A stretch of DNA of 62,544 nt, filler included, from Collodictyon triciliatum (GCA_043381765.1; 9 parts of 9 records of this genome joined end to end with filler, not necessarily neighbours in it); one strand, 5' to 3'. Shown: positions 14,589 to 62,380, counted from the whole stretch's first letter. Notes: generated from the sequence alone by a model not told the origin. Numbers and translations: made by a program.

Positions 14589-15215
14589 TTATTTTTCTTT
14601 GCGTGTGGAGATAGAGTTCCTGTCTACAAGGTGCCAGCCTTCTTTCGCACTAATGCTGCTTGATTGCTGCGTGGCGGAGAAGTAGTTGGTAATCAGGAAT
14701 TGCATCCTGCGGTTTGGCCTGTAGCCTGCGTCTTGTGCTTGCATGAGGGATACAAGGCAAGGTTGAATCTCTTTCTCAGCTTCTTTCCACATGTCTCTTC
14801 TCACGGGGTCTGAGTAGTAGAGAACGTGCATGTGGCGAAGGAAGCTGTTGAGGAAAGAGATTCGTATGATGTCATTCAGTCTATTATCAGAAATGGGTGG
14901 CTGGTTGTTGAGTCTAGCTTTGCGTGAGTATATGCGTGCTATCCACATAGTCCATAGCAAATGGCCTTGCATCACTGCCCAGAGTGTTTTTGCATCTGGA
15001 TGCAGTTGTCGAAGAGGCCCAAATATCGCCTGGATTGGGCCAATAGCTGCAGCCGTCTTGAGTGTCAGTCGGAAAATCTCGCCGGCTGTTTCGCGCAGAT
15101 TTTTGAGAGAAGGGACATTGTACAAATGTGTGCTCAATGGATTCATCACCGTTGCTGCAAAGCGTGCATTGTTGGGAGACTTTGCCAGCTTTTGCCGCGC
15201 GTGTGCCTATCCATA
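14589..15215 (-). mobile_element. L1/Tx1-like non-LTR retrotransposon ORF2 3' end (copy 2, cut by contig end)
   Basis: WIGTRAAKAGKVSQQCTLCSNGDESIEHTFVQC is a CCHC zf-RVT motif; a 1-nt frameshift follows, then LLWTMWIARIYSRK. Confidence 0.85.
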
Positions 15216-16098
15216 NNNNNNNNNNNNNNNNNNNNNNNNNNNNNNNNNNNNNNNNNNNNTTAATTAATTAANNNNNNNNNNNNNNNNNNNNNNNNNNNNN
15301 NNNNNNNNNNNNNNNAATCCACGTTGCGCAGGAAAAGAATCGAGAATCATGAGAAATAACTGGATAGGGTGAAAGATTCGAAACCATAAGGCTCTATAAA
15401 TACCATGTTTGTTTTTTTTTTTCCTTTATTCGGAATACCATGTTTGTTTGAATGTGTGTGTGTGTGTTTTTTTTTTTTTTTTACATGCTGTGTGCTAATA
15501 TATCAACGCACTTGGAGTTCGCGTTGATTAATAACACACACAAACTCATATGACTACCCGAACCCAAGACTGTTGGCTCATCCAGGGGCGAAATCCAAGG
15601 TCAACGACACACAGAATTGCAAGAAAACCACCAATAAGGCCTTGCGAATACATACACCCACATGCAGCAATGCCTCTGAAAAGATTGCTCTTTTAAAACT
15701 AGCTCTTCCACATACATTTTCCCTGTCACTCGCGCCGCATCCGCCTATGCATATAAATATTCATGTATCGATTGCACTTTCCTCATCATTCACGCACTGG
15801 AAACCAAGCATTTGTCCAATCTTCACATCAAATAAAATGTTCCAAGAAATAATCGTATGTGGAAGTTCATTAGTTTGTCGAATTTTTTGAAGCCCGTTGT
15901 ATAGTTATACGACTTTATTTGCAAATCAATATTGTTTTTAATTTTTAAAAAAAAGTAACTGCTACTACCTAGCCAGTTTACGAACTTGCAGAAAGATGCG
16001 TGAGTATAAAGAAAAAGGATCATTTCGCATATGAGTGATGAGCGAGATGACGTGTTCAGGTAGTGGTTAAAGTGTATCAAAAAAAAGTAGAAAGGTAC

Positions 16099-22131: not shown

Positions 22132-22415
22132 CCTATAATTACATGGATTATTGTTTTTTTTTATACTTATTGTGCGTGTGGGGGTTATTGCTATTGGTTC
22201 ATGTTTTCACTGTATTTTAGTTTTTTATTGTGTTTTTTATTGTGTTTTTTATTGTGTTTTTTATTGTGTTTTTGTGGGTTCATTTAATTGAAATCCAGAA
22301 ATGGCTGTGAATGGGACATTTGAAAAAGCACACGACTTTGATCGGAGGTGCAGATCAGAGATAAACGCGACAACAGAGCAGCGGTAACAAAACACAGCCG
22401 AAATCACAGCAGTGG

Positions 22416-22523
22416 ATGTCAGAGTTGTCAGAGTTGACTTCGCCCGAGGCGACTCCGTTGATTCCAAAAGACGCTGCCGCTGATGTATCCCGCAGACCGT
22501 CTGCCTGGTTGAAATCCTATGTG
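22416..22523 (+). CDS. Probable first exon of a gene divergent from the NACHT-TPR gene (3' partial)
   Basis: MSELSELTSPEATPLIPK...KSYV|gtaatt; EATPLI fits a [DE]xxxL[LI] sorting motif; followed by an intronic repeat and the contig end. Confidence 0.5.
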
Positions 22524-22529
22524 GTAATT

Positions 22530-22870
22530 TCTCTCTCTTTTTCTTTTTCTCCTTGTCTTTGTCTTTGTCTTTGTCTTTCTCTTTTTCTCTGTCTTTCTCT
22601 TTTTCTCTTTGTCTTTGTCTTTCTCTTTCTCTTTCTCTTTGTCTTTGTCTTTGTCTTTCTCTTTCTCTTTGTCTTTGTCTTTCTCTTTCTCTTTGTCTTT
22701 CTCTTTCTCTTTGTCTTTGTCTTTGTCTTTGTCTTTGTCTTTGTCTTTGTCTTTGTCTTTGTCTTTGTCTTTGTCTTTCTCTTTCTCTTTCTCTTTCTCT
22801 TTCTCTTTCTCTTTCTCTTTCTCTTTCTCTTTCTCTTTCTCTTTCTCTTTCTCTTTCTCTTTGTCTTTCT
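22530..22870. repeat. Mixed (TCTTTG/TCTTTC)n microsatellite
   Basis: Seen directly. Confidence 0.95.
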
Positions 22871-22970
22871 NNNNNNNNNNNNNNNNNNNNNNNNNNNNNN
22901 NNNNNNNNNNNNNNTTAATTAATTAANNNNNNNNNNNNNNNNNNNNNNNNNNNNNNNNNNNNNNNNNNNN

Positions 22971-23205: not shown

Positions 23206-23277
23206 GGCTCCATGGTGTAACGGTTAGCACTTCAGACTCTGAATCTGACAATCGCAGTTCAAATCTGCGTGGGGTCA
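23206..23277 (+). tRNA. tRNA-Gln(CTG)
   Basis: Acceptor GGCTCCA/TGGGGTC, D arm TGGTGTAACGGTTAGCAC, anticodon arm TCAGA-CT-CTG-AA-TCTGA, T arm CGCAG-TTCAAAT-CTGCG, followed by a T-run Pol III terminator. Confidence 0.95.
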
Positions 23278-30385: not shown

Positions 30386-30779
30386 GTAAAAAAAACAGCT
30401 ACAATTAGACAAATAATAGAAAATAAAAAAGAATAAAAAAAGAATAAAAAAAGAAAATAAAAAAGAAAATAAAAAAGAAAATAAAAAAGAAAATAAAAAA
30501 GAAAATAAAAAAGAAAATANNNNNNNNNNNNNNNNNNNNNNNNNNNNNNNNNNNNNNNNNNNNTTAATTAATTAANNNNNNNNNNNNNNNNNNNNNNNNN
30601 NNNNNNNNNNNNNNNNNNNCAATTGTTAGTTTTGCAGGGCAAAAAAGGAAAAAGAAAAAAGAAAAAAGAAAAAAGAAAAAAGAAAAAAGAAAAAAGAAAA
30701 AAGAAAAAAGAAAAAAGAAAAAAGAAAAAAGAAAAAAGAAAAAAGAAAAACATAAAAACTAAACTAAAATAAAACGTAG

Positions 30780-33700
30780 GCTGGATTTTTGAACGAGAGT
30801 GTAATCATTCGTCCTTTGAGTATACATAAACCTGCGCTATTTTGCAGTGGACTTCGTTGTTCATTCAAAGGAATCAGCTTTGAGGGTTCGCAAAGTAAGG
30901 ATATTTGCAAGTAACGAGTACATTACCCTCTTTTTTAAAAAAAAATTATCTAGACATGATTTTGATGGACATCTATCACGATTTGAACGTTTCATAGCGC
31001 ATATTTTCGAAGTGTATAAATTCATGTAGTATTGGATTCAACCAAAACACATAACCAATCAAAAATCTTGTGGGATTTTTGCGTGGGCTTAGTCGCAATC
31101 AGCCGATGTCATTTCATTTTTCTGATACATGCACTATTATATAGGTTCAAGCAATATTCTGAGCAATCTGGAGGCCAATTCTAGCGTATTGGCATTGTCA
31201 CTGATTCTGGTAGAATACAAAATCCGCATTCAAATATATTCCTCTCGATTCTTTTATCGCCATTCAGAAAACCATTCGTTTCTTGAACATTTTTTTTAAA
31301 AAAAATTAAAATATATCTATTTTTGAAGATAAGAAATGGAGACGCATCCTTCGCTGGATGTAAGTTCAGTTTGACCAGAGGGACAGGAATAGTATCATTT
31401 GGTTCGAGAGCCACGTTGGAACTTAATGACTGTGATATTGACGGGAAGTCCTCTGGAAATATTGGTTTATTATTTGAAACAGCCAAAGCTTCTATCCAAA
31501 ACACTCGTATTTCCGGGTTTAGAATAGGCTTGCGTGGTTTCAATAAATCAGAGATTCGAATAACAGCCACAACAATATCAGATACATCGGCATACGGTTG
31601 CGTCTTTCTCGATGCAAACGAGGTTTATCCTTCTAGCAACATATTTCCAAAATTATATTTTTTAAATTTAAAAAGGGTTAATCCATGATTGGCTGTCATG
31701 CAAAAGAAAAAAAAATAGAAAAAAGGAAGGCATCTTTTATATAGAAAATAAGCCGATAAGTTTTTAGAGCGATGTTCAATTTCACCTTCAATATATTCTA
31801 AATATCGCTTTTTTCTGTTCAATTTCACTAGTGCACGGTTAGTTCTGTCAAAATTATTAAAAATTCAGGCGTTGGTATTCATGGTGATAATTCGACTTTG
31901 TCCATAACAAATTCCACAGTGGAGCAGAATAAAGAAGGCGGGATGACAATTTTCAATTGCCCACGCTTCTCTGTGAAAAACACCTCTGTGAGGCAAAATG
32001 GACAAGATGGAGTCATAGTTGATGGATGTCTTAACTTCAACATATCCCAAAGTATCATCAGCGAGAACTCTATTGCTGGCTTGTGGATTAGAAATTGCAT
32101 CACTGGATTGATTTCGTCTGTTACCATGAAAAAAAACGGGAAGGATGGAGTAAGGAAAACGAAAAATGTCAATTTTTCGTTACTATTTTTCTCCTTCTTA
32201 TCCACGTTATAACGTATCATACTTTATATTCGTTACATATAATAGAAGAGCTTATAGTTTAGTAATATTGTATTTTTTCCATGTTTATTGTACATATTGC
32301 ATTTTAAAAAAGAGGATAAAATACAAACATATCCTTTTTTTCATCATAATTTGTAAAACGATGCAGGTGGTAATCCAATCAAGTANNNNNNNNNNNNNNN
32401 NNNNNNNNNNNNNNNNNNNNNNNNNNNNNNNNNNNNNNNNNNNNNNNNNNNNNNNNNNNNNNNNNNNNNNNNNNNNNNNNNNNNNNNNNNNNNNNNNNNN
32501 NNNNNNNNNNNNNNNNNNNNNNNNNNNNNNNNNNNNNNNNNNNNNNNNNNNNNNNNNNNNNNNNNNNNNNNNNNNNNNNNNNNNNNNNNNNNNNNNNNNN
32601 NNNNNNNNNNNNNNNNNNNNNNNNNNNNNNNNNNNNNNNNNNNNNNNNNNNNNNNNNNNNNNNNNNNNNNNNNNNNNNNNNNNNNNNNNNNNNNNNNNNN
32701 NNNNNNNNNNNNNNNNNNNNNNNNNNNNNNNNNNNNNNNNNNNNNNNNNNNNNNNNNNNNNNNNNNNNNNNNNNNNNGAGAACAACGTCATCATATTGCC
32801 TCATGGTTCCGTCAACAAAGCCGTTGTAGACTTTGACTCCAGTAAGGGGAAGGAAGTAAAAAGCCAAAATGGTAGCATCTCTACTCCAAGGGGCGAACGA
32901 TTTGCTTCGCCCCACTCCACAATGAGTCCTCGCTTCATGGATTCCCCCCGTAAAGTAAGCACGGACAAACAAAGACCTCCTCTTCGTCGTGCAAATACAC
33001 CTCCTCCACCAAAGAAAAAGGACAATACCACCTCAGGTATCTATATAAGTCATTATTTAAAACTTTTTTATATTCCGTATTTTATTCAATATTAATTTAT
33101 TTTTCAACATATGTGTATGAATATAAAGTAATTCATTTAAACAGTAAGAGATACGCATTATTAAAAAAAAATTCCTGCTTGGCTGTAGAGCAAGAAGATA
33201 TTGACGATGAAGAATCTAGCTGCACAAATGTATTTTCTTTGCGCGTTGTCTGCAAGCCAACAGTAATACTCCCTAAATCACCCCTTCCTTTCGTGTACAT
33301 ATAGCTAGTATCGAGAGTAGCAATTCATCCTGATATGTGTGTGGTGTATATGAAAGAAAACTGATTTATTTACCATCGCAATTGATATTTATAGTCCCTT
33401 ATTGCCACATGATAATATGTACTCATACCTGAACATCGCAAAAATTTTTTTTCACAGTACAACACTCATTTCTTATTTTTTCTTTCTCTTTGGAACCCGC
33501 CCACAGTTTAATTTAGTTAGCTGTCTAAAGTCGAAAAGTGAGAAGCCAAATGGTGCCAAAGCAGTACAATTTTGTCGCGAAATAGAGTTCAAATCAGTCG
33601 ATAATGAAATCACCCGCGTCGAAGACCCAGAATGGAGCCACTACAAGAAGCAAACACAACTGATTACAGAAAGAGACAAAGTTTCGCACGAATATCCCAT

Positions 33701-38011: not shown

Positions 38012-38746
38012 CTTTTATTTGCAGGGATTCAGCAGAGACAGCGAAGAATTTCATCACCAATAGAAAAAAGAAAAAGAAAAAGAAAAAGAAAAAGAAAAAG
38101 AAAAAGAAAAAGAAAAAGAAAAAGAAAAAGAAAAAGAAAAAGAAAAAGAAAAAAAGAAAGAAAAGAAANNNNNNNNNNNNNNNNNNNNNNNNNNNNNNNN
38201 NNNNNNNNNNNNTTAATTAATTAANNNNNNNNNNNNNNNNNNNNNNNNNNNNNNNNNNNNNNNNNNNNTTTTTTCCAAAAAAAAATAATATCCAAGCCCT
38301 AGACAGAGTAGACAGGTCATATTTGTCAAGCATTATATCCGAATAGTTTTTCACACGAGCATGATTTTTGATGGGCGAAAAGGAATCATAATCCTTATCT
38401 AATGATGTTTTTTTTTTTTTTTTTTTTTTTTTTTGGTAGAGCCTTCCTCATAATCCTAGTTTTTTTTTTTTGAAAAGCGGTAACCAGCCACCAACTCGAC
38501 TTTAACCTCATGCTTCGCCAACTTTGAATCGATTAAAGGAAAAAAAAATTATGCTTCGCCGAATATCGAATAACTAATTTATAATTATGTAGAAATGTGT
38601 TGGTTATAATTCATTTTTCTTCTTTTATCCGCTGGTGGAGTTCATATGCGAGACAACTGGTTGGATGCTGTCTAAATTTCATCTGCATTATGTTTAACCG
38701 CTATTTATCGATAATGTTGAAGATTATTTACCTTTGCCCGCGCCTG

Positions 38747-40026
38747 ATGGAAAACACAAGCCGAGACGGGGAGATCAACACAAGCCGCGACCCGTCGAAG
38801 GTTTTGAAAGTTGCAGCCAGTTCTTCTGGTTCTAACGCTGGTGCGGAAAAACCATGGGTTGCACGTAAGTCTAGGAAGTCCCGTGCAAGGAAGCCGACAG
38901 CAAGTCTGTGTGAGCGGACAGTATTTTTGCACGGGGTCGAGCAAGTCATTCACAACAAGAACAAGGCACGGAGACTCACAGATGCGCTCGCCTCCTTCTT
39001 GAAAGCGAACAAACTTTGGGAAGAGTCCATCCGATTGCGCTTAACGGACAGCAAAGGCCTTTGCCTAATTGCCTCCCGCACTGCAGAAAACGCCCGAAAG
39101 CTTCTGGAGCTGAAGCAGGTAAGTTTGATCGATATCATGAACAGCTTTAGTAGAAGTAAACCAACAGAGACCTCGGTGATGCTCTACCAACTACCGCTGG
39201 ACGTGTGGCCGCAACTCCTTCGTGAGGAGTTGAGACCGTTCAGACCGACTCGCGTAGAGATCAAGACAGGACAAAGGCTTCTTCACAGACACGGCCGTGG
39301 TGGAGCTTCTTTGTCACAAGAACCAGCTCCCTGCAAAGTTTACAGTCATGGGTTAAAAGACCTTCCAAATCACCGCTCTCTAATGCTTAATATCACCAAT
39401 AGGGAGCTATGGATAGGCACACGCGCGGCAAAAACTGGCAAAGTCTCCCAACGATGCATATGCGCAGCAACAGTGACGAATCTACTGAGCACACATTTGT
39501 GCAATGTCCCTTCGCTCAAAACCTGCGCGAAACAGCCGGTGAGATTCTTCGACTGACACTCAAGACGGCTGCAGCTGTTGGCCCAATCCAGGCGATATTT
39601 GGGCCTCTGCAACAGCTGCGTCCAGATGCAAAAACATTCTGGGCAGTGACGCGAGGCCATTTGCTATGGACTACGTGGATAGCACGCATATACTCACGCG
39701 AAGCAAGACTCAACAACCAGCCACCCATTCCTGATAACAGGCTTAATGACATCACACAAATCTCTTTCCTCAATAGCTTTATTCGCCAACTGCACGTTCT
39801 CTACCACTCAAACACTGTGAGAAGAGACATGTGGAAAGAGGCTGAGAAAGAGATTAAACCTCGCCTTGTCTCTCTCATGCAAGCACAAGACCCAGGCTAC
39901 AAGACAAAGCGCAGGATGCAATTCCTGATGGTCGTCTACTTCTCCGCCACCCGGCCACCAAGCAGCATACATGCAAGCATTGGCTGGTAGCTTAGAGACA
40001 GGAACTCCATTCTCGCACAAAATTGA
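38747..40026 (+). mobile_element. Internally deleted L1/Tx1-like element: ORF1 fragment fused to ORF2 C terminus (copy 3)
   Basis: 38747-~39360 is ORF1-like (SVMLYQLPLDV...EELRPF; after a frameshift GFFTDTAVVELL...LPAKFTVMG); from ~39362 the zf-RVT region (ELWIGTRA...DESTEHTFVQC); no endonuclease or RT motifs. Confidence 0.8.
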
Positions 40027-44632: not shown

Positions 44633-45767
44633 ATGCGGTTGAATCCGAAGACTTTAGCATCCATGTTGCTGTTGGGTTCGTTGTTCTATTAAAATTATAT
44701 AATTTAAAAATTATTGACTACAAAACATATATAATTATATAATAACCATTCACAGGAGTGATATTCCACTGCCATTTGTGTCTTGTTGAGGGGCAAGGAT
44801 ACCTGATTCGCACATTAACTGGTCATACAAGTCCTGTTCGCACTGTTGCTACTTCTCCTGATGGCTCAAAAATTCTTTCTGGAAGCGAAGATAATACAGT
44901 CAAAATTTGGAATCCGTCTGATGGAACTTTGATTCGAACGCTGACTGGTCACACAAGTTATATTCGTAGTGTTGCTACTACTCCTGATGGCTCAAAAGTT
45001 TTTTCTGGAGGTCACGACAATAAAATACAGATATGGAATCTTTCTGATGGAACTTTGATTCGCACATTGACTGGTCACACAAGTCCTATTTTCGGTGTTG
45101 CTGTTACTCCAGATGGCACAAAAATAATTTCCGGAAGTGGTGATGCAACAGTCAAAATCTGGAATCTTTCTGATGGAGCTTTGATTCGCACATTGACTGG
45201 CCATACTCGTGTTAACAGTGTTGCTGCTACTCCTGATGGCTCAAAAATTGTTTCTGGAAGTAGTGATAAAACAATCAAAATTTGGATTCTTTCTGATGGA
45301 GCTTTGATTCGCACATTGACTGGTCATACTGGTAGTGTCAACTGTGTTGCTGTTACTCCTGATGGCTCAAAAATTATTTCTGGAAGTGGTGAAGGTACAA
45401 TCAAAATTTGGATTCTTTCTGATGGAGCTTTGATTCGCACATTGACTGGTCATTCTGATGGTGTTAACAGTGTTGTTGTTACTCCTGATGGTTCGAAAAT
45501 TGTTTCTGGATGTGGAGATCAAACAGTCAAAATTTGGAATCTTTCTGATGGAGCTTTGATTCACACATTGACTGGTCATACAAATGGTGTTGAAGGTGTT
45601 GCTGTTACTCCTGATGGTTCAAGAATTGTTTCTGGAAGTAATGATATAACTATTAAAATATGGGGAGGTATTCCTGAGATGGCTTCTCAGTCCCGTTCAA
45701 AGACTAAATCCAAATCTCTCTCAAAGTCCCGCTCTAAGTCCCGCTCCAGATCCCAATCCCAATCCCA
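44633..45767 (+). CDS. Signal-peptide-bearing 7-repeat WD40 protein with S/K/R-rich tail (3' partial)
   Basis: Exon 1 MRLNPKTLASMLLL-G, 80-nt GT-AG intron 44676-44755, then VIFHCHLCLVEG-QGYLIRTLTGH; seven ~42-aa GH...SGS.D.T.KIW repeats. Confidence 0.85.
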
Positions 45768-45867
45768 NNNNNNNNNNNNNNNNNNNNNNNNNNNNNNNNN
45801 NNNNNNNNNNNTTAATTAATTAANNNNNNNNNNNNNNNNNNNNNNNNNNNNNNNNNNNNNNNNNNNN

Positions 45868-48169: not shown

Positions 48170-51100
48170 TTAGGAGAACGGCGACTGTGCGGCCGCGTGG
48201 GTGGATGAGGATGCGGACGGGGACGTGGATGCAGATGCGGATGCGGATGCGGAGGCGCTTCTGCTCTTGGCCAGCAGGTCGAAGGCAAAGCCCGCCGCCA
48301 CAGTCGGGTCCCGCCGCGGGTAGAGCGGCTCAAAGGCGTACGCCATGCGGAACAGAACGTGCTCCTCCCACGGCCGGCCCATCAGCTGCGTGTGTGTTGT
48401 GTGCTCGTCAGTGGGGAAGGGGGGCAAGAAGGGCAAGAAGGACAAAGAAGGGCAAGGAGGGCAAAAGAAACAGGAGCAGCACAGGATGCGCATGTGTGTG
48501 TGCAACCTGCAGTCCGATGGGCAGGCCGGCCGCGTCGAAGCCCACCGGGAAGGAGATGCACGGCAGCCCTGGGAAAAGACTGCTGAGCGCACTTACTCGC
48601 CAAAACACACCCACCGTTTCTGGGTGTCTTCTTTCCTTCTTTTCTTTTCTAAGTCTTTTCTCAGAGGCGTGAGGCTGTGTTTTAAGCAAACCTGTGAGTG
48701 CGCCGAGGAAAGAGTATCGCATGGCTTCCGTCGATGTGGCGTTGTCCGATTCGCCTATCACCAAAGAATTGTAAATAAAAAGAGAGAGAGAGAGGGAGAG
48801 AGAAAAGAGGGAGTAGATGTGGGTTTGTGAAGGCACTAATCCGCGTTCTACATGTAAGCTATTGCATATACATGTGGGTGTGGGTGTGTCTTGCTCTTGG
48901 TGCAAGGTGCACACAAATAACCACGACAAGGCAGCGAGCGGGTCAGAAGAAATGCCCTTACCATCCGATATCGCAGCACTCGAGATTCTCGGGGCTGTGA
49001 CGGCTGTGGACGGCGTTGCAATCACGTCGACCTGAATCCACACATAAACACGACCTTGTGAGCCAATTTCCAGTATACTAACTCATGTGACCATGTGGAA
49101 GAACCATCATCAAAGCAAGAAGCAAGAAACCATGCCATCAAGTGCCCGGATCATCAATGACCTCCCCACCTTTTTTAGGACCCTCAACAAAGCATGAATC
49201 ATTTTTGTTCGGATCTTTTGTGATTTGATATAATCCACGCCAGTGAGTGTCCTACACAGATTGAAGCGCTCTAAATCACACAACCTAGGTTTAAAATCTG
49301 CCCATGGCATCGATGAAGAATGAGCCCAATAGAGGAGATAGAGAGGAGGTTTCCGCATATCTTAATGCGCTTGTGTGTACCTCGCCGTCGCCAGTAGGAT
49401 TCGTGTGTCTGCATTGAAGAATTTGGAGCATTTCTATGCATATTACCCGCAATTTCATTAAGCAGTACTTAATGCGAATACAAATGAAATGTGCCTGGTT
49501 CTGTGCGTATGTCGTTTGATGGAAGGAAGAAGCTGACTTTGTAGTACATGTCGGTCGAGGCGGTGACTTCAGAGAAGAGAAGAGCAAGATGCGCAACACG
49601 GGCGATATTCAAATGTGGTATAGAAACTAAAACAAAGAACTTACAGCTCTAAAAAATAATAATAATGGCATAATGGAAACATCACGGTGGATACAAGAAT
49701 ACCAAAAGGTTCATATAGACAAGTAGTATCTTGCAAGGTCATGAATGAAAGATATATGCTGATACAAATGACTCTAACCCTCTCTAACGTCTGCTCCCAT
49801 TTCTCGTAATCTGTAATAATTTTTTTTATTCATGTTAAACTACTTGAATGCTTTGAACCTCGCCTCTTACAAAATCATATGATATTTTTGGATTTTTTTC
49901 ATATGTTGGAACCGACTGTACCATATCAAATTAAAGTGAGGTAACTGATAAAAAAATCGTGGCAACTTATAACCTTTCAATGGCTTCCGAGCAGCATTTA
50001 ACAATATCCGGTGTGGCATGGTTAAAATATGGCTGATAAATGCCTATGGAGAGCCCACTGAGATTGCGATTTGTCATGTTGTAAAAAGTTACTGGTGGCT
50101 TTTGAAAAAAAAAGAGGAGGATTTGTCAGTAGGCTGAATTACTCTCTTTCTTATCGTTTCATATAACACAAAAGATACAAAATATACAAAATATACAAAA
50201 GATACAAAAGATACAAAAGATACAAAAGATACAAAAGATACAAAAGATACAAAAGATACAAAAGATACAAAAGATACAAAAGATACAAAAGATACAAAAA
50301 ATACAAAAGATACAAAAGATACAAAAGATACAAAAGATACAAAAGATACTAAAGATACAAAATATACAAAATATACAAAAGATACAAAAGATACAAAACG
50401 GGACACAATTGTTTTAGAAACCCCCATAGAAACAAATGGAAGCTAGACCTGGGATAGGGATACAACATCATCTGAATCCGCACCAGACACAATAGAGTAT
50501 GTCAGAGCGCAGTCTATAGTCGTTGCAGCAACAATACCCACTTGTGTATTTGACCATGACAATGGAAATAGGCCGTGACTACTGATACGACCATATGTGG
50601 GTCGCAATCCCACAGTTCCACAGTAACTGGCAGGAATCCGGATAGACCCACCTGATAATGCAGGATTTTCCTCAGGAAAAGAAAAGCAGGAGAGCTGATG
50701 TCTCCAGGCAATGTCACAAATTAAGAAATGAAATAAAATCAAGATAACGCACCAGAGTCAGTAGCCAGAGATATTGGACATAAACCAGCTCCAACAGCTG
50801 CTGCGGATCCCGAGCTTGAGCCACCAGAGTAATGATGCATGTTGTACGGATTCCGACATGCCCCTACATTACGTCGGCATTTATTCTTGTGAGAGAAATT
50901 GACTGTTTCGTAAAAAAATATAAAAAATGCTGATGTAATTTTATGAGCAGGGTATATCTTACACAGTTAGAAAGGAAAAAAAATACAAGAAAGAATGATT
51001 GTCTAATATTCTAATACCAAAGTGTGGGTTACATCCGCTGACTCCGCATCCCAATTCGTGCATGGCTGCGGTTTGGTTTGAGTAAGATATATAAAGAATT

Positions 51101-53084
51101 AATACGTGGTAATCAAATGACAGCCTTTTACTTTTTGGTTACTTGAAAAACTATGAATTGAACAAAAAATATAAGTACGAGATAAATTTAAGCTTGCTCA
51201 AGGCATGTAGCATTTTTTTTTCTGAGATAAAAAAACCTGTCTTTCCAAATAAAAGAGCTCCTGATCGTCTTAATCGTTTTACACATGTGGCATCCTCTTT
51301 TTTTATATAGTATAACAAAAAAAAATCAAAACATGACATACAGTTAAAAGATCAATCAATCCATATTTTGTAATTAACAGATAGATATCTTATTATGTCA
51401 AAACACAGAATCGTTCAAGAAATACGCCGTGTCTTTTTTCTACCAACATAAACATAGTATGCACTAATGAAAATGTCTGCATATTGATCACAGAAAACCT
51501 TGTGGTTGTAAAAGAAGAAAATTTGTTCCAGCAGATGTCGCGTAAGGAAGCTGTCAAGAAAAAAATGAATGAATGCTGATTTTCTAAAAATGTGTTCATA
51601 AAACCTTTTCATTAGCCTTTTAAAAATAAGATTACAATTAGGCGTAGAATGATTATTTTTTTTAAAAAAAAAAAGACAACAGGAAAGACAGACACACTAC
51701 CATATCTATCTCGTCTTTGACGCAGATTGGCACACCATCTAGTGGAGAAAGAGGAACTCCCCTTCGATACCGCTCAGTTGAGGCTGCAGCTTGCACAAGA
51801 ACCTCTCCTTCGACCATCTTCCATCAAAGGAATTGTTAGCTCAGTCGTTGATGGTGAGTATAGTCTCATCAGAATAATGGTACGTATTTGTGAAATAGAA
51901 AATCAGCAAAACCAATAGAGGAAAGAGAAAAGAAAATGAAGATTTAATCGTGCTTTTCCCTTTGGGTAAAAAAAGCCGTTCGAAAAGGTAGAATTGATTA
52001 ATCAATTAAATATGTGCCCTTATGTTTATGAAAAGTAATAAGAACCTTAACAACCGCGCGTAACGGAAGATCTGAATGATTTGATTTTCTTACAGAATCA
52101 ATCAAATTCTGTGCAACCTGTGTCGGGGTAATATGCCCCAAAGAATATGCCCGATAATAATCTATGTAGCTATGGGGCTTCTTTATTGCTTGATTCTATT
52201 ATATTAATTCAGTAGAAAAATATGGAGTTTTTGAGTTAATGTGCGCTGAGAGCAACTCTGTTTGAGCGAGTCAAGGATATCTAGGTGGAATAATAGCAAA
52301 TCTTATAATGAAAGAGATATTACCTCCCACGCATAAAAGTCGAAAGTATCTCTGGGAACTGAATCTTCCGGAGTAGAATTGTGAAGCGGCGCAGGTGTAG
52401 GGTTTTCTTCACAGATTGAGTCTGAGAGATAAGAGTCAAAGAATGAGCACAATATGGGATATAAATTAATTTCATAATATATCAAATATGTTTTCTATTA
52501 TTTTGCAGATTTCTTTTTTCTGCGAGAAATGCCCCCAGAAAGAATTTAATTCAAATTATGCACAGCTAATACAAACCAGTGAGATCCTGAAAGCCAGCCT
52601 CAGCCTTTAGTCTTGGAATGAGAGCCCAGTTTGTCATGGAAGCTTCGAGGCTTGCAGCAAACATCCGCAAAGAAAAGCCGGTAAGCTTAGGGTGTGGGAC
52701 AGGCTTCAGGTCGTATACAATAGCACCCTCCTCCTCGTCCTTCACATGGCGCATGAATTCATGGATTATAATGCATGAGTGAATATTTATCAGTGGTTAT
52801 CACAGCTTTTGTTCTTTCAATTCTCTGGGAGATAGAATTCGCATCCCACACAGACACACAGACACACAGACACACGGACACACAGACACACAGACACACA
52901 CAGAGGAAAGAAAGAATAAACAGAGGGACCGAGGCAGCCATGAAGATGGGATAAACGAAAAAGAGAACGAAAGAGACACCAAAGATGGAGTTCCAACCTC
53001 GAGATCGTCTTCGAACGCGCTTGGGATGCCGCTGGACTCGGACGAGGAAGGCTGATCGAGCTCAAACGCAGGGTTCGTGGCCAT
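48170..53084 (-). CDS. FAAH: Amidase-signature enzyme, plant-type fatty acid amide hydrolase, multi-exon
   Basis: YDLKPVPHPKLTG N-terminal extension; [87 protein letters not shown]. Confidence 0.88.
50170..50398. repeat. (AAAAGATAC)n intronic 9-mer array
   Basis: Seen directly. Confidence 0.95.
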
Positions 53085-53508
53085 TGAAATGTGCGACTTC
53101 CGCGTGCCTAAACACGTTCGTGCGTCAATACAGGCAGAAAGAGAGGCCCGGAGCAGCAGAGTCGGGTGATCGGTAGCGCTTTCGGTTGCAGAGTACAGGC
53201 GCGCCAGAAAAACAACGCGTCCCAAAAGCACCAGGCAGCCAACTTTTCAAGTGCGCCCAGGAAACGTGATGGAATAGGCGGTGCCACTTGCAATTATAGA
53301 TGTATTCGGTAATCGAGGGGAAAAGGTGGCGTTTTTTTTTCGGTGCTGTAGTCCCCAAAATCGTCCGCCAAAAAAACAAAAAAAACAAAACAAACAAAAA
53401 AAACAAAANNNNNNNNNNNNNNNNNNNNNNNNNNNNNNNNNNNNNNNNNNNNTTAATTAATTAANNNNNNNNNNNNNNNNNNNNNNNNNNNNNNNNNNNN
53501 NNNNNNNN

Positions 53509-56500
53509 CACGCTAAGCTCGATAATCCTTGTGGCAGTGACATCAGCTGATTTTGAGAGACATCGAAGCGAATAAGACCATTCAAGCATGATATTTCTGA
53601 AGGTAGTGATGACAGCTGATTTTGAGAGACATCGAGGCGAGTAAGACCATTCAAGCATGATATTTCTGAAGGTAGTGATGACAGCCGATTTTGAAAGACA
53701 TCAAGGCGAATGAGACCATTCAGGTGTGATATTTCTGAAGGTAGTGATGACAACTGATTTTGAGAGACATCAAGGCGAGTTAAAACCGTCAGGTGTGATA
53801 TTTGAGCTGGTACTGATGATATCTGTAAATCATAGTAAATGAGCAGAATGGAGGTATGAATGAGGTTGATTCAAATGCAAGTATGAAATTAGTAAATGAA
53901 AGAAAAAAAAACACAAGCGGAACACCTTATTTTTTGATAAGTCCAGATATAATAGGCTTGTAAGAGTGAAACATGGCTCCGGGAAAGATGCAAGCTGTAA
54001 AAAGGAGGTAAGTTTCAGTTCAAATAAATATTAAATGAAAATAATGGTTCACTTAGATGTTGTGAAATATTACTTTGTTTGAATGGACGTAGAGTTTCTT
54101 TAGCCCAACTAAATGCTTAAGCCAATTAGGAATTTGAGAGAGCTTCATATCACCCATCCACAGCGAAGTTGCGTGTTGGATTCCATGATTGTAAGGGGTG
54201 TACTGCACATTCATATATTGAATTTCTTCCAATTCTTGAAGGGTACTGGAGCTTAATGGATGTTTAGGGGACTCAGTCTCATTTGGATGTAGGTGGTCGT
54301 TTATGAATTGGGATACAAACGAGAGTTCTTGCTCAGAAAGCGAATGGGTCGTATGGACATCGGGCTGGTCAAGCTTGGATATTGTGCTTCCATCAAGCTT
54401 CAAGGCTTTCACTTTCCCAAGCAGTCTTTCCGACAATTCGTCTTTCTTTTTCTGCAGATGAGTCACCAATTGGGAATAAAATAATTCCTTAACTTTCTTT
54501 AGAGATTTTGAGCTGCCACCTCCAACACTTTGATTTGAAAATTCTACAAATGCACAAATGTCATCTGACGATATGTGATACATATCAACCATCGTGCTTT
54601 CATCTAGTTTGTCTTGAATTTCTTGGAATCTTCCCCAGCTTTGATTTGAAATTGTATCGCTTAGTTTTAAAAAGCCATGTTCTCGAAGCCACTCCACAAA
54701 TTCGCCCTGGTACATATCAGCCAAAATAGCATATTTAATTGGAAGCAGTTCGTTAATTATCTTTTGAGAAAGCTTCTGCTCATTTGATTTCAAGTTATCC
54801 AAGTATACACAAACTCGATTCAGAGAAGGTCGGAGCTTGTAGTTTTGCCTCCAGCACGCTCTGATAAGATGGTTGAGCTCACGAGCGGTTTCTTTCGGTA
54901 TTTCAAGCCGTAATCCCCTGATAATGAAGCTCTGTGGTCGTGCCTCGTTCTGGAAAGGCTCGACTCCAGAAAACATGTACCAAACGAGCATTCCCAAAGC
55001 ATACACATTACTTGATTCTCCTCGGTGGCCAATGTTTACTTCATCATCACCATACATTTCTGGGTTATCATTATAAAACGGTTCGCAGGAAACTTCATGG
55101 ATTTCCGGTGCTTGCCAATTAGCCGTTCCGCCTTGCTTGTTCTCACCAAATCTCGTCGGTAAGTTTGACCCAACTTTTTCAACTTCACGAAGGCTCACTA
55201 TCCCAAAATCCACAATTTTTACTGTTTCACCCACAATCATAACGTTATCGGCCTTCAAATCTTCGTGATACAGGTGTTTGGAATGCATGAAAATGAGACC
55301 CTTGCAAAGTTGCTTTGTGTAAGAAATTATTTGAGATAATGTTGGCTTAACCTTTTTCTTCTCCAACATCGCTTTCAACGAAATACCTGCATTCTCCATA
55401 ATCATGAAAAAGTCGTCATCTTTACGATACACACCAAATAATTTGACTATATTTTCACATTCTTTGCATTCATGCAGATACTTGCTTTCAGAAATGAGCG
55501 ATTGAATCACCTGGCTGAGGGTCTGCTCCTTGCTCTTCTGGATGGTTTGGATTTTCACCACAGCACTTTTTCCTTCGAGCATTGTTGTATAAACTCGCCC
55601 ATACGCCCCCTTTGCGAGATAACCTGACAGTTCTATTTTTTCATGAATCCATTGGTCTATTAATTCTCGGTCGATTGAATCCAGCTCAAGAATTGCTTCA
55701 GCAGATTGAGGCGTCTTTTTCGTTTTTGCTCTCACCACAGAGGAGAATCTCTTTGAAATCCCTTTTTTAAAAAAAAAATATTTATAAGCTTTCGATAACA
55801 TATAATCAAATTATCATTAAGTTGAAAATTAACATTTTTTGAATATATTTATTATAATAAACCTTGTTCCAGATAGACACGCCCTTGCTTTACTGCACTC
55901 GCATCCAATTGATGGCTCTTAGTACACACCTCCAATTCTGATTCATCTATCTTTGCCGATGTTTGAATGTATCCGTCTAATCCATGACGTTGGCATTCAG
56001 GGCATTCAAACTGGTATGCTTCCACAAAATTTGGTCGAATTGATGATATTTGTTTGATGAAAGTTGAAAGAATGTCAAAAATCCTGACGAATCTATCACC
56101 TTCATGAACCTCATTTTCGTATTTTCTAATCTTGACTGAAATGCTCTTCTGGTGGATTTGATACAGAATAATCAAACCGTCTCCAGGAAGCAGTTGAATT
56201 TCATCTGTTCCTGTTTTGTAGGAAGCATTCAGATGTATGAACGCTACATCTCTGAAAAACTGGTCGTCATATTGAACTCCAGATTGTGCCTCTTTTGTCA
56301 AACGAAGCGCTTGCATGACGACGTTACTTTTGTCAGAGAGCTGTACCTCACCATTGGTTATTATTTTTACAGAGGTTTCAACGATGCAGTTTGACTCTGC
56401 TTTTTCATTCCATAATGCTTTGAGATTTAGGCAATCTTCCATCAATGAGGGAAAGGCGATGCATTCTCTGTTGAATTGAATCCCAAGGCCGAAATGGTCA

Positions 56501-59500
56501 AAGATTCGAAGAATTGTATTGAACACATGTTCGTCTAGTTCCGCATTCAGTTCGTGTTTTATTTGGTCTTTTAGCTTGCCCAACAAAATGATGCCACTTG
56601 TGTCCTTCCCGATGCCTTTGAAGCTAAAGACACAGCGGAATATGTTGATGAGAAATAGAGGGTCTAAAAATATAATGTCTTTGATATATTCAAGTGATGA
56701 ATACCAAACGACCGAGCCAAGGTCGTGGAGGAATTTGAGAGCACTTTCGCATCCATTTCTGTCCATACCCAGCTGCTTCTCAGCAAAATCGTAAGTATCT
56801 TGAATTCGTTCGTACTTTGATATTTGGCCTTTTGAATCCAGATAATCTTTCAGCCCGATATATGTTTTTGGAACGTCCTTGTTCATGTTATCAAGCCTCA
56901 TCATTCCTTTGTATATCTCTCCCTTCAAATATGAGATTTTTTTCCCATTTTTACTGCTTACTCTTAACTCTGTATTGATGAAGATGTGGCGAGCCTTTTC
57001 ATCCAGTTTCTGCTCATTTACTTTTTTAATTCGTTCAATTTCTTCCATCATTTCTTGCTTACAGACCCGGATTTGACAATCTTTGCGAGTCCCGGCAATT
57101 ATGATTTTTGAGCCAGGTGCAAACTCATCAAGCATTTTGACCCAGCGGCTGAGATTGTTCTTCTCCTTGCCTTGGTCGAGTCTGTACAGGATTAAAACGA
57201 GGGCGCCTGATGACAAAAAGAATGGGTGTGTCACTTGGAACTCGTCTTGTCCTCCAAAGTCCCAGATTCGCATGGATATCTTTGTCTTGAATAATCCACC
57301 CATCATCGACTCATCGATATCAACGTGGGCAATACCATCAGTTGCAATCCTTGGCTGGTCTGTCATATTCTTAAAAAACATAGATTTTTGTGTGATTGAT
57401 TTGATAAGGGTTGTCTTCCCTGCCTCCCCCTCGCCCAATAGTAGGAGTCTTCCTTGGGTCCATTTTACAACACCATTCATGGAGTTTGCCAGGAAATCAA
57501 AGATAGCCTCAGACCCATTTCTGATGACGTTCTCTGGGATATTTTTGATATGATTTCCTTGGACATTCAGTCCACCTCGAAGGCCTTTAAGCTTGGCGAT
57601 GAATGGAGGTATAACTCCGATCTGTTTGTGTAATTAATGTTTTCTTTAATTTTTTTATTTTTGAGTAATTCGGCCATATAACTTAATTGAAAAATCCCAT
57701 GGAGGATTTAAATAGAAAAGTGGTTGACCTTGTTGTTGGATATGTCCAGTTTTTGAAGATTTGCAAGGTTTGCTATGTCTTCTGGGATGTGTGAAATCTG
57801 GATTTGTACGATAGGTGAGGTTTAAATGGCTATTTGATTACTATAGTTTGCACTATTGTTCATTCTTTAGTTGTTTTTTTTTTACATGTCTGTTGTGTAG
57901 CTTTATAACCTGATTTCCAGAAATATTGAGGGCCATGATAAGTGTTATTGTACAGATGACTGTGGGGAATGCGTCGAACTGAAATCCCCACATATTTTTC
58001 ATTTAATTAAGTAGAATGTATGCTAGGCTGTTTTAATTGTGTTTTTTAAATATATTCAATATATATATGTATGTGTGTACTTTATTGTCGCAGATGCTTA
58101 GATTTGTGAGATTCGTCAAGTTTGACATGTTTGCTGGCAGTGTTGATATCTATTTATTTATTAATTAAATAATTAAAGAGGGTTTAATTTCAATCATGTT
58201 ACTAATAAAATGTATTAATGAAGTATAGGAATGTCTTTTAAAGAAAAAGAAACAGAAAAAGTTGCCTGGTTGGTAGATATGTCAAGTCCGTTGGGTTTGA
58301 TGGGCAGCATGAACAGCTCATTTGGTAAATCTATGATATTTCGTCCAGATAGACTTATTCCATCGCTATTTGCGAGATTGATTGAGTCTAAAATTTGTTG
58401 GATGTGCGATGGAAAAGCATTTTGCTTCGTGTCCAGCTTCTTGAGTTTTGTCAACGCTCGCAAATCAGGCAAAGTGGATATCTGTTAATTGAAGGGAGGG
58501 GGTTTCCCTTAATATCGACGGCTGGTGCATGAATCCACAAGCAAATCACAGGCATATCGTTTGGTGTATGATTCAATCTCTTAAATTATTCGGTTATAAT
58601 CGAGCTTAAAGTATTCGTACCTTGTTGTTGCTGATGCTGAGATTTGTGAGATTAGTCAAGTTCGACATGTTTGCTGGCAGGGTGGATATCTATTTATTTA
58701 TTGATTAATTAAAGAGGGTTTAATTGCAATCATGTTACTAATAAATTGTATTAATTAAGTATAGGAATGTCTCTTTAAAAAAGATTTAATCACCTGGTTG
58801 GTGGATATATCGAGTGATGCGACGAGCGTCAATGTGCGGATGGCTGCAGGCAATGCATCGAACTTTGGTGTGCATGTATTTGTCAAAACACTCTCATTTA
58901 TGATAGACTGGGATGTATGTTTATATATTCTTGTTAACTCAAGTATTCGTACCTTGCTGTTGCTGATGTTGAGATTTGTGAGATTCGTCAAGTTCGACAT
59001 GTTTGCAGGCAGGATGGAGAGACCCATTCCGTAAAAGTTAAGTGATTGGAAGCCGACTTGTCTCGCATTTGGAATCCAGCCTTCTATCATCATATCTTCC
59101 TCCTTTTTTTTTATTTCTCAGTTTCTTTAATTTGCGAACAGTCTCATTTTTATTGATGTATTTATGTTTTCTGATTAAAAAAAAAAGAAGGAAGGAAAAT
59201 ACTCACAGGGGTTTCATATAGCTGAAGTTTTTTGAGGGCATCTGCAACGCTCATCGTGCCTGATGAAGGTTTTTCCGTGTTTGTATAGCACGGAAGGATT
59301 GAAATGCCTCGTGGTGCATTTTTTGTGTTTGTCTGTCCCCTCCTCTCGATGATGAGCGTCTTTAGGTTTGTGAGTGCCGTGATTTGGGGCGGGAGCTCTT
59401 CAATCTGAGTATATTGCCATTAGATGTCAGTATTTTCTTAATTCAGAATGTATGCATTCTGGACAAACGTAGTGCTGTTTGCACGGTCATCTTCAACATT

Positions 59501-60764
59501 GTTGCACCGTGTTACTGTGATAATGTCGTCTTTTTTTTAAAAAAAAAAAAAAAGAATAATTGAGAATGAGTGAAAAATTTAAACCTAATCATTCGAAGCA
59601 TCGATTATCGCCACACGGCCGCCATGCAGAATGGTAATTAGTACCAAATCATGTGGACTTGTTGTTTATCAATCATTGGGATTTATGCTTATTACGGCTT
59701 TTGATTCACATACCTTGTTCTGGCTGATGTCGATGAAGCTCAGATTCACCAGGAAGGAGATGTTGGCAGGAAGCACAGAGATGTTTCTTCCCGTGAAATT
59801 CAGCGAGTGGAGCTGGATATATGCCTCGCTTGGTGTCCATCCCGGCTTTAGAATTTCGTCTTCCTGTTTTTGCTGTGTATTTTAGGATACTTTTCGTTAT
59901 TTTATTATTTGTCTATGTGCTTACGGGGTCGTAGAGCTGCAGCGCGCGGATGTGTTTGTTTTGTGAGTGCCCTGTGTTGTTCCACACTGGCAGGGCCGTG
60001 ATGCCACGCGGCGCTCTCTTTATGTAAATTCTTCCATAGCCTTTGATGTAGAGTTCCTTCAGATTTGTGAGCGCTGTGAATTGTGGTGGAAGCTCCTCCA
60101 TCTGCGTGTATGATTGTCAGCCACTTTATCTTTCAACATAAAGAAAAAAAGATATAATAAATGAATAAAAACATACAGGGTTGTCGCCAACATCAAGCTC
60201 AGTGAGACTAGTCAAACACGATATTTGTGGAGGCAACGATGACAACTGATTGTAACCAACACTATGCTCAATGAGACCAGTCAAACACGATATTTGTGCA
60301 GGCAACAATGACAGCTTATTGTCATTAACGCGAAGCTCCGTAAGACCAGTCAAACACGATATTTGTGGAGGAAGCGATGACAACTGATTCCCATAAAAAT
60401 TCAAGATTTTCAGACTAGTCAAACACGATATTTGTGCAGGCAACGATGACAGCTTATTGTTTCTAACATCAAGCCCAATAAGACCAGCCAAACACGATAT
60501 TTGTGCTGGAAGCGATGACAGCTTATTGTCACTAACATTAAGCCATGTAAGACCAATCAAACACGATATTTGTGGAGGAAGTGATGACAACTGATTGCTA
60601 TAAAGGTACAATCCTTTCAGACTAGTCAACAAAAAGACGCCATGAGGAACGGACGTCAGCTTCTTGGAACGGAGATCCAGATTCCCGGAGCTTTTTAAAG
60701 AGGCGATGTAGTCTTTCCCGGCGATTTTTCGGACCTCTTCTAAAAGCGCGGCCTCGTCGGCCAT
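53509..60764 (-). CDS. Roco protein: LRR-ROC-COR-protein kinase-SAM-like-LRR (3' partial)
   Basis: Start MADEAALLEEV; 23-aa LRRs; ROC GEGEAGKT, WDFGGQ, GTRKD, VSSK; COR LKFLHDLGSVVWY, IFLDP; kinase GAYGRVY, HEDLKADN, DFG, GTANWQAPE; further LRRs to the contig end. Confidence 0.92.
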
Positions 60765-61231
60765 GCCGGCAGAAGTGGGGCGGGGGTGGTTTGGACGGGT
60801 TCTGGGGGCTGTGTGGACGGGTGGCCTGGGTTGTGTTAGTGCACAGCGGTGTTTATTTGTTTTGCGACTGCACTTGACAAGCCACACAGACTGGCGTTGC
60901 TCGAGGGAGAACGGTGCGGTTGTGCACACAGAGAATAGAACACGCGTTGCCAATGAGTGATGTGATAAGGTGGCGAGAAAGAAAGAGCGCAGGGCAGCAG
61001 CGATTTCGACGGGACGAAGGTTAAATATCCCACAAAGGCCGGCGAATCTTCCTTACGAATGAAGATGTGGNNNNNNNNNNNNNNNNNNNNNNNNNNNNNN
61101 NNNNNNNNNNNNNNTTAATTAATTAANNNNNNNNNNNNNNNNNNNNNNNNNNNNNNNNNNNNNNNNNNNNTTTTTTTTTTTTTTTTTTTTCCTTTTTTTT
61201 CTTTTCTCTTTTTTTTTTTTTTTTTTTAAAG

Positions 61232-62380
61232 CACTCTGGTGATTTGGACAAAGCTCGTGAATGTGCAAACGAAGCTCGAGAACTTGACCTCGCTGACAGG
61301 AACTTGAATACAAAGTGTGTAAAATATACACTACGCAATGACCAGCCCGAGCTAGCTGAGTCTATTGCAGCTTTGTTCATTAAGGTATGTGCATACACTC
61401 ATATATATACAAAGATTATGGAAAAAAAAACCCATCAACCTATTTTCATTCGCATGCTTGTTGACCAAAGGCAATCCTATATGCAGGAGGGCGGAGCAAA
61501 AGACTATCTTGATGGGATACAGTGTATGTGGTACGAGACCGAGGGTGGCCGAAGCCATCTGCGTAAGAATAACCTTGGAAAGGCACTCAAGAATTTTACT
61601 GAAGTCAGGAAGGTTTGTCATTTTTTTTTGTTTTTCTCTTTCTCATTCTGATGAATGGATGTTATCATCACGGGCGTCTACTTAATACATGAACCCTTTT
61701 AGTACCGCCCGATTTCTCTCTATATCAGATAATGAAGCTTTTGATATAATTACATTTAACATCATGCATATTATTTTCAGCACGTGGACGAAATGATTAC
61801 AATCCAGTATGAGTTCCATGGATTTATTCCCCGAAAATTGACCCTAAGGTTTGCACTATCAATTTCTACGCGATAACAATTAAAAGTCAAACAAAGTATA
61901 TTATCGTCGAATATTGTAATTGCGAAGGGTTTTTTTTTTAAAAAAAAACTCGCATTTTTACTTGTAGGACCTACTTCGATCTTTTGCACTTTGCGGATAG
62001 AGTTTATTCTCACCCCTTCTATTTCAAGGGCGTCTCTGGGCTTATCCAGGCAACCAATCAAAATTAAAATCAAAATTAAAATCAAAATCAAAATTAAAAT
62101 TAAAATTAAAATTAAAATCAAAATTAAAATTAAAATTAAAATCAAAATCAAAATCAAAATCAAAATCAAAATCAAAATCAAAATCAAAATCAAAATCAAA
62201 ATCAAAATCAAAATCAAAATCAAAAGAATAATAAAATTTGATAATATCACTATAACTGGCGAATTTTCAAGAAACGGTTTGCCTCTGATGATTATTTTTG
62301 ATTATTCAACCAGTCATACATCGCCTTGCACGAAAGTCGACTCAATCCTCAAGTCGAAACAAGCGAGGAGGATGTCACCG
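61232..62380 (+). CDS. NAA15: NatA N-acetyltransferase auxiliary subunit, internal exons
   Basis: HSGDLDKA...ARELDLADRNLNTKCVKYTLR; QCMWYETE; GKALKNF; QYEFHGFIPRKLTLRTY; HPFYFKG...YIALHE. Confidence 0.92.
62057..62225. repeat. (AAAATC/AAAATT)n intronic microsatellite
   Basis: Seen directly. Confidence 0.95.

Follow-up and report, generated by a model that had tools for sequence, protein, structure and literature searches.

When exons of equal length each encode a single leucine-rich repeat (LRR), and each can be lost or gained without a frameshift, do they serve a receptor that diversifies by exchanging them, or do they merely record how the repeats multiplied? The question is raised by a ROCO gene in a 62,544-nucleotide (nt) stretch of DNA from Collodictyon triciliatum (GCA_043381765.1; nine records joined end to end with filler), hereafter the window. 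Collodictyonids are deep-branching predatory freshwater flagellates. An earlier note on this DNA proposed that the LRR region of the gene is built from interchangeable phase-0 exon cassettes and represents a diversifying receptor system comparable to that of the brown alga Ectocarpus. According to the analysis described here, the gene probably encodes a germline LRRK-like sensor kinase; its exon pattern would have come down through tandem duplication, and its N-terminal LRR surface would be evolving quickly.

The gene lies on the minus strand and was modeled, by strand reading combined with scripted splice-site tests, as 15 exons totaling 5652 nt, with no internal stop, encoding at least 1884 amino acids (aa) in the order LRR, Roc, COR, kinase, LRR (Table 1). 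The start at ATG 60764 is provisional because the frame remains open upstream to 61052, and the 3′ end and C-terminus are unread because exon 15 runs into N (53465-53508). The Roco identity named in the earlier note was borne out by Pfam: Roc (1.1e-18; score 68, cut-off 27 bits) and COR-A (2.7e-11; score 44, cut-off 35.3) are adjacent within exon 12, preceded by LRR_8 (exon 1, 2e-21), and followed by Pkinase (4e-37) and by a second LRR_8 match in the last exon (7e-18); among the sequence relatives, PF08477 was found in all 110 listed and PF16095 in nearly all. The GTP-binding motifs of Roc are intact (GEGEAGKT at residue 671, DFGGQ at 729, and TRKD at 786), as is the kinase catalytic set (AVVK at residue 1261, HEDLKADN at 1360, DFG at 1379, and APE at 1412), and the kinase is, judging from its residues, probably active. 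Human LRRK2 is the closest solved structure for Roc-COR (3e-17), and both the order LRR, Roc, COR, kinase and the intact GTPase and kinase motifs are shared with LRRK2 and LRRK1; the Roco kinases of Dictyostelium are also of this LRRK-type kind. Unlike LRRK2 and LRRK1, the gene carries a second LRR block behind the kinase, and neither ankyrin, armadillo, nor C-terminal WD40 domains were found by Pfam in the scanned exons, the C-terminus consisting of LRRs whose last part is hidden by N. The closest solved matches of the kinase were EGFR, TTK, and RIPK1 (1e-16 to 1e-19), without specific affinity to LRRK kinases, and the identity of the gene to any known ROCO is low.

The exon pattern described in the earlier note was reproduced. 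Each of the six exons that it named (exons 6, 7, 9, 10, 11, and 14) is a 69-nt, 23-codon exon encoding one LRR, is preceded by AG and followed by GT, and ends in N-Q/K (TNQ, NNK, DNK, GNQ, NNK, and KNK, respectively); phase 0 on both sides means that skipping or duplicating any of them keeps the frame. Phase 0 was found in 13 of the 14 introns, including all those of the LRR regions; the sole exception, at the COR/kinase join (55762-55862), is a predicted phase-1 intron placed by frame logic alone, without RNA support. Exon translations showed a common cut site within the repeat, LxLxxNx / LxxLP, for 11 of the 13 phase-0 introns, and the equal exon length and phase are therefore not due to chance. 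Since about half of introns are typically in phase 0, at least 13 of 14 would be expected with p ∼0.0009, but these introns are mutual copies rather than independent draws: homologous repeats inherit their intron position, so the phase-0 introns do not count as 13 independent events. Symmetry extends to all ten internal exons of the N-terminal LRR region, each of which could be dropped in frame. Single-exon units nevertheless make up only six of ∼26 recognizable LRR units, and others are intron-free, specifically seven in exon 1 and at least 4.5 in exon 15.

The proposal that the cassettes are interchangeable was not upheld. Fourteen of the 15 possible pairs share only 39-65% of their bases and 22-57% of their residues, the exception being exons 7 and 9 (58621 vs 58081; 87% of bases). 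The cassettes fall into two alternating types, A (FDAxP...NQ) and B (ISx(L/I)P...NK), and are interleaved with conserved longer exons of 59, 50, 66, 50, and 72 residues that encode irregular modules. A cassette profile run over both strands of the 62.5-kb window recovered only the six cassettes plus the end of exon 5 (seven matches, E ≤ 3e-10; the last 69 nt of exon 5 matched with nhmmer at 1.2e-11), the next best match having E = 0.21. Inverted LRR copies were absent from 57600-60200, where the inverted repeats are A/T-rich only; thus, by the cassette profile and the inverted-repeat search, no silent LRR copies were detected in introns, in antisense orientation, or elsewhere in the window, which contains one ROCO gene. 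In metagenome contigs, a Roc-COR protein scan gave 101 pattern matches, of which none was confirmed, and a degenerate DNA pattern of the type-B cassette gave 0 matches.

Splicing was assessed with the assembled contigs of one freshwater metatranscriptome (X3), which are 90-99% like the window; stretches without RNA cover were not used as evidence. Only three public runs, all freshwater, contain 5-7% of the sampled words. The RNA contigs join exactly across introns 53823-53925, 53995-54073, 57798-57909, and 58690-58793, all with GT..AG ends on the minus strand, and thereby confirm exon 14 at both ends and four further 69-nt exons at one end each. The acceptor of exon 2 is marked by four RNA contigs that end or join at 60102, although their short sides (21-28 nt) make this evidence weak, and the other eight introns were placed from the open frame and from colinearity with relatives derived from complementary DNA (cDNA). 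The donor that follows exon 8 is GC rather than GT, and one RNA contig (record 24) spans 58266-58483 with unaligned flanks, which would fit splicing at both ends of exon 8, GC donor included. All four RNA joints link neighboring exons and no joint skipping an exon was seen, a weak negative given that these are assembled contigs of a relative 90-99% identical; cassette splicing nevertheless appears to be absent. The confirmed donors vary (GTGTTC, GTAATA, GTTATA, and GTGATT), so weak-looking splice sites in this gene are uninformative.

Several further observations were made on these junctions. At 58264-58265 the intron after exon 8 begins with GC, whereas its duplicated sister intron begins with GT, and the RNA contig match ends exactly at this exon boundary. 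RNA joints from 60102 to 60272, 60273, and 60331, together with a DNA joint from 53621 to 60346, were considered as splicing of the ROCO gene and rejected; they have replaced letters and sides of 21-28 nt, and were read as paralogs or relatives matched to another repeat unit. In a freshwater DNA run (X1), one contig lacks exactly 102 nt (34 codons, 59944-60045), corresponding to the irregular insert of exon 2; its matching side is only 28 nt, and it may derive from a paralog or another organism.

The repeats bear the marks of duplication at several depths. A recent one is that of a tract of ∼210 nt present twice, 540 nt apart, which starts 24 nt before the end of the upstream exon and continues through the complete intron and the type-B exon to the fourth nucleotide of the donor; 91 of 104 aligned intron bases and 60 of 69 exon bases are identical (87-88%), and the flanks are unrelated. 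Exons 7 and 9 accordingly differ at nine positions, seven of them silent third codon positions and two of them replacements (S/C and N/D), which occupy the exposed positions 7 and 8 of LxxLxLxxN. Constraint on the duplicated intron, as a splicing selector or small RNA, was considered and dropped: its divergence (13/104) equals that of the exon (9/69), the comparison of third positions with the intron gave p = 0.053, and Rfam returned no match. An older two-exon duplication relates exons 2-3 to exons 4-5. The end arrays in exons 1 and 15 are intron-free and have 61-70% of bases in common, with neighboring copies up to 84-85% alike, and within exon 1 the copies of a duplicated three-unit block are 83-86% identical. 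The arrays before Roc (60136-60687) and after the kinase (53512-53850) also have the common signature NxLSSLPxxISCLxGL; because of this signature and the shared bases, one array probably gave rise to the other, 6.5 kb away within a single gene.

Much the closest relatives were those of Diphylleia rotans, for which the data set (EukProt EP00002) provides at least 11 LRR-Roc-COR Trinity genes, as transcripts only. The 16 top Roc-COR matches looked up comprised 11 distinct D. rotans Trinity genes, two Logan assemblies, one bacterial metagenome-assembled genome, one ENA entry, and one unnamed EukProt protein. The D. rotans proteins were 26-38% identical over Roc-COR (E 1e-28 to 1e-60), and the next other source, at 1e-32, fell among the weaker D. 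rotans matches. Residues 121-1052 align colinearly with D. rotans P0053 (31% identity, 1e-101), and the D. rotans ROCO proteins contain the same peculiar LRR modules (NPxxELP..RAPxGIxxLPCW..LxLY; KxNxFP..LD..LS..LP..DLSxN) in the same order; because the odd modules match each other in the colinear P0053 alignment, the repeat order has been conserved, not scrambled. The 22 D. rotans proteins that form nine Trinity isoform groups showed no difference by an LRR unit within any group, and the sole internal difference within an LRR region was a 49-aa insert that reads like a retained intron. Nor was any LRR unit common to related genes in 55 pairs formed by the ROCO gene and 10 D. rotans genes (P0268 was left out, its Roc domain having been missed by the P-loop pattern); the best shared 23-aa stretches were 12-17/23 identical. 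Recent internal LRR copies reach 23/23 residues in the ROCO gene, as against best matches of 11-14/23 in D. rotans. None of the five D. rotans relatives scanned has a kinase: P0055 and P0056 end in DUF4062 and AAA_16, P0053 in AAA_16 without a DUF4062 match, P0054 in a PH domain, and P0057 in nothing recognized. The P0055/P0056 arrangement, LRR-Roc-COR joined to DUF4062 and an AAA_16 STAND-like ATPase, puts switch NTPases of two kinds downstream of a single LRR sensor. No paper that mentions Roco together with Diphylleia turned up in a full-text literature search.

Brown-algal LRR-ROC-COR genes offer the nearest parallel in exon structure. In two papers on Ectocarpus and Saccharina, their 'type I' LRR exons measure 72 nt (24 aa), are said to be in phase 2, and follow the pattern GxxPxxL...LxLxxNxLx; nearly the whole LRR domain comes from one-LRR exons, up to 49 in tandem, alternative splicing and concave-face selection are reported, and the shuffled groups are given without a kinase (Zambounis et al. 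2012, PMC3341825; Teng et al. 2024, PMC11378527). Silent LRR copies in introns, on both strands, are presented there as the main evidence for shuffling in Ectocarpus (PMC3341825). The Collodictyon gene shares the Roc-COR core, the N-terminal LRRs, the equal-length single-LRR exons, and the retention of frame on loss or gain; however, its exons are 69 nt (23 aa) and in phase 0, with the cut site (LxLxxNx / LxxLP) lying two residues before the algal one, only six encode single LRRs, no relics were found, and a kinase and a second LRR block are present. The likeness is genuine as regards symmetric one-LRR exons in a ROCO gene growing by duplication, but the Ectocarpus-like design put forward in the earlier note is not supported by this comparison, and the different phase and cut site suggest an origin independent of the algal exons. 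Equal-phase exons of this kind also occur outside diversifying systems: the glycoprotein-hormone receptor genes of vertebrates have one LRR per similar-sized exon, all in phase 2 (cited in a passage of PMC11378527), and from that description they acquired them through exon duplication as ordinary genes, there for the extracellular domains of G-protein-coupled receptors. A true LRR-cassette system is represented by the variable lymphocyte receptors of lampreys, assembled somatically from flanking cassette arrays (cited in a passage of PMC3341825); no such arrays were found in the window by the cassette profile or the inverted-repeat search.

The reading favored here would account for the pattern as follows. 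The ancestral repeat unit may have had a phase-0 intron right behind LxLxxNx, and units consisting of repeat plus intron would then have duplicated in tandem and spread the intron; such duplication yields symmetric 69-nt exons automatically, and the one-LRR-per-exon arrangement would be a historical by-product. Introns are unnecessary for the turnover of repeats, because exons 1 and 15 duplicate theirs without them. Diversity would accordingly build up in the germline across evolutionary time, as duplicated repeats rapidly change amino acids on their concave face, and not from combining cassettes within one organism. By analogy with LRRK2 and with Dictyostelium and bacterial Roco proteins, a ligand or other partner would attach to the LRR solenoids, the Roc-COR GTPase switch would set the conformation, and the kinase would relay the signal.

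Several observations weigh against this reading. The exposed positions of LxxLxLxxN (2, 3, 5, 7, and 8) line the concave, predicted binding face of an LRR. At the five exposed positions of the three unit pairs in the exon 1 block, 15.2 replacement differences were counted over 37.2 sites (dN, replacement differences per site, 0.59), as against 5.0 silent differences over 41.8 sites in the scaffold codons (dS, the silent equivalent, 0.13), a ∼4.5-fold excess (Fisher p = 0.004, or p = 0.055 against all silent sites; three unit pairs only) that fits a fast-evolving receptor. Only 31 of 33649 sets of five columns in this block contain as many replacements. Conversion confined to the conserved half of the repeat could mimic selection, but this is unlikely, the interleaved scaffold codons (1, 4, 6, and 9) having one silent difference in three pairs, as low as the rest; the C-terminal array showed no replacement excess at exposed positions. 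Among the 40 listed of 224 differences from environmental relatives, the LRR exons have 11 replacement to 4 silent ones vs 12:13 elsewhere, which is not significant and may include repeats paired with the wrong unit. D. rotans expresses at least 11 distinct LRR-Roc-COR genes, and no protein more than 38% identical over Roc-COR was found among 1.84 billion representatives. The bZIP gene in the same window is, unlike the ROCO gene, 84% identical to a D. rotans protein, and this disparity could mean a rapid turnover of the ROCO family. Four RNA contigs carry differing last repeats before exon-2-like sequence, with matching sides of 21-28 nt, which hints at several expressed paralogs, and the lack of skipping joints is itself weak evidence because assembled contigs drop rare isoforms.

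In a rival reading, the system would be Ectocarpus-like, with symmetric one-LRR exons shuffled within and between loci, or alternatively spliced, into many pathogen or prey specificities. In favor of the earlier note's receptor proposal, an exon-intron tract has been copied recently, the predicted binding-face residues of exon 1 have changed faster than silent sites, and the family in D. rotans is sizeable, with an AAA_16 STAND-like tail in three of five scanned, two of these also having DUF4062. The ten symmetric internal exons, the exposed position of both replacements in the recent pair (7 and 8), and the absence of a close ortholog on record point the same way. Shuffling is not supported: single-LRR exons are a minority, the cassettes are old and unlike, relics are missing from the 62.5 kb, neither skipped-exon joints (a weak point) nor LRR-unit isoforms were seen, none of the 55 gene pairs has a unit in common, the module order is conserved with D. 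rotans, and intron phase, intron position, exon length, and domain order are unlike those described for the algal genes. Such a system is therefore considered unlikely here. A broader version seems rather unlikely as well, namely that collodictyonids carry an expanded LRR-Roc-COR receptor family with a common duplicating-LRR sensor and varied output (kinase plus LRR, DUF4062 plus STAND-type ATPase, or PH), in which 69-nt exons, independent of those of algae, would serve rapid remodeling of the binding surface to recognize viruses, parasites, or prey, possibly with cassette splicing.

Two other explanations concern the exons themselves. Regulated splicing of a few cassettes (e.g., exons 6-7 or 9-11) might tune the length or curvature of the solenoid in an ordinary kinase without an immune role; the symmetric 69-nt exons stand in A-B pairs, such that removing one pair keeps the alternation, and a non-canonical GC donor lies behind exon 8. 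This is improbable, however, as every RNA joint runs from neighbor to neighbor, the nine D. rotans isoform groups contain no comparable isoforms, and the variation among confirmed donors deprives weak-looking sites of meaning. That the locus is instead a decaying or mis-assembled copy, and the exon pattern an artifact of the model, has been largely refuted and is highly improbable. The 3′ end does meet N, eight of the 14 introns are without direct RNA support, the start codon is uncertain, and the D. rotans transcriptome set lacks the gene; yet 5652 nt are spliced without a stop, all catalytic motifs are intact, four introns and the exon 2 acceptor appear in RNA contigs at 90-99% identity, and the protein is colinear with cDNA-derived D. 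rotans proteins across the unsupported junctions. The germline sensor kinase with an inherited exon pattern thus probably remains the best description of this gene.

Table 1. Exons of the Collodictyon triciliatum ROCO gene, duplicated segments, and paired N runs in the window.
Feature	Position	Strand	Description
Exon 1	60177..60764	-	ATG 60764, 196 aa; seven 23-aa LRR units; LRR_8 2e-21
Exon 1 block duplication, three units	aa 49-117 vs 118-186	-	Repeat family D1, 84% identity, 207-nt shift
Exon 2	59925..60101	-	177 nt, 59 aa; one LRR plus irregular insert (xEELPPQ..KRAPRGIxxLPxW..LQLYDP); module kept in D. rotans ROCO proteins
Exon 3	59714..59863	-	150 nt, 50 aa; linker followed by an LRR; last residues ISQNK
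Exon 4	59207..59404	-	198 nt, 66 aa; older copy of the exon 2 module
Exon 5	58953..59102	-	150 nt, 50 aa; older copy of the exon 3 module; family D3, 68%
Exon 6	58794..58862	-	69-nt type A cassette, FDALPAAIRTLTLVASLDISTNQ; donor RNA-confirmed (joint 58794 to 58689)
Exon 7	58621..58689	-	69-nt type B cassette, ISTLPANMSNLTNLTNLSISNNK; acceptor RNA-confirmed
Exon 8	58266..58481	-	216 nt, 72 aa; conserved three-repeat module (TLPDL..KQNAFP..LD..LS..LP..LDISTNQ), recurring several times in D. rotans P0115
Exon 9	58081..58149	-	69-nt type B cassette, 87% identical to exon 7
Exon 10	57910..57978	-	69-nt type A cassette, FDAFPTVICTITLIMALNISGNQ; donor RNA-confirmed (joint 57910 to 57797)
Exon 11	57729..57797	-	69-nt type B cassette, ISHIPEDIANLANLQKLDISNNK; acceptor RNA-confirmed
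Exon 12	55863..57621	-	1759 nt; last LRR, Roc GTPase (GEGEAGKT, DFGGQ, TRKD), COR; ends in phase 1
Exon 13	54074..55761	-	1688 nt; protein kinase, ∼230 residues without domain assignment, first C-terminal LRR; donor RNA-confirmed (54074)
Exon 14	53926..53994	-	69-nt cassette of the C-terminal LRR region, LASFPEPCFTLTSLLYLDLSKNK; both splice sites RNA-confirmed
Exon 15	53509..53822	-	At least 4.5 LRR units; families D1 and D2; LRR_8 7e-18; acceptor RNA-confirmed; runs into N
Duplicated tract, copy 1	58617..58815	-	Families D3-D5
Duplicated tract, copy 2	58077..58290	-	Families D3-D5; duplication or conversion
N-run pairs	7560-7659, 15216-15315, 22871-22970, 30520-30619, 38169-38268, 45768-45867, 53409-53508, 61071-61170		Two 44-N runs each

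Elsewhere in the window, eight pairs of 44-N runs, with 12 bases between the members of a pair, recur every 7600-7660 nt, more regularly than ordinary assembly gaps would; the 3′ end of the ROCO gene is covered by one pair, and the region immediately upstream of the gene contains another. A single 392-N run occupies 32386-32777. Just downstream of the ROCO gene lies an amidase gene of several exons (50446-52800, minus strand; Pfam Amidase 9e-21 for one exon). An open frame at 44746-45819 (plus strand), which runs into N, encodes at least seven near-identical 42-residue WD40 repeats (TLTGHT..V..TPDGSKI.SGS.D.T.KIW.LSDG.LIR; Pfam WD40 6e-84); highly uniform WD40 repeats are typical of sensor domains with repeat turnover, and no NTPase domain was visible in the 4.7 kb upstream of this frame. 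Three copies of another open frame (..NLRETAGEI.RLTLKTAAA.GPIQA.FGPL.QL.PDAKT.WAV..GHLLWT.WIARIYSRKARLNNQPPI..), at 329-817 and 14589-15206 on the minus strand and 39403-39990 on the plus strand, probably represent a dispersed repeat or mobile element; the two copies scanned had no Pfam match. The bZIP-type open frame (5531-6400, minus strand) has a weak Pfam match (bZIP_1, 2e-4) and is 84% and 75% identical to two D. rotans transcripts, which puts the organism close to D. rotans, though probably not in the identical strain. The plus strand also carries a right-handed beta-helix fragment (31290-31688, 1e-7) and one transfer RNA gene (23206-23277), and long microsatellites are frequent, e.g., at 22261-22914, 50133-50442, and 61900-62300.

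If the favored reading is correct, its contribution is descriptive: a first exon-level view of a collodictyonid ROCO gene, with the order LRR-Roc-COR-kinase-LRR, and a clean example of how one intron position can spread through a repeat array by tandem duplication and so produce symmetric exons, with no cassette system needed. Because phase and cut position differ from those of the brown-algal exons, one-LRR exons would have arisen at least twice in ROCO genes, which warns against taking this exon pattern by itself for a mark of adaptive-like immunity. Should the bolder reading be true, candidate diversifying LRR-ROCO receptors would extend to a lineage near the base of Amorphea, and how unicellular predators distinguish self, prey, and pathogen would become testable.

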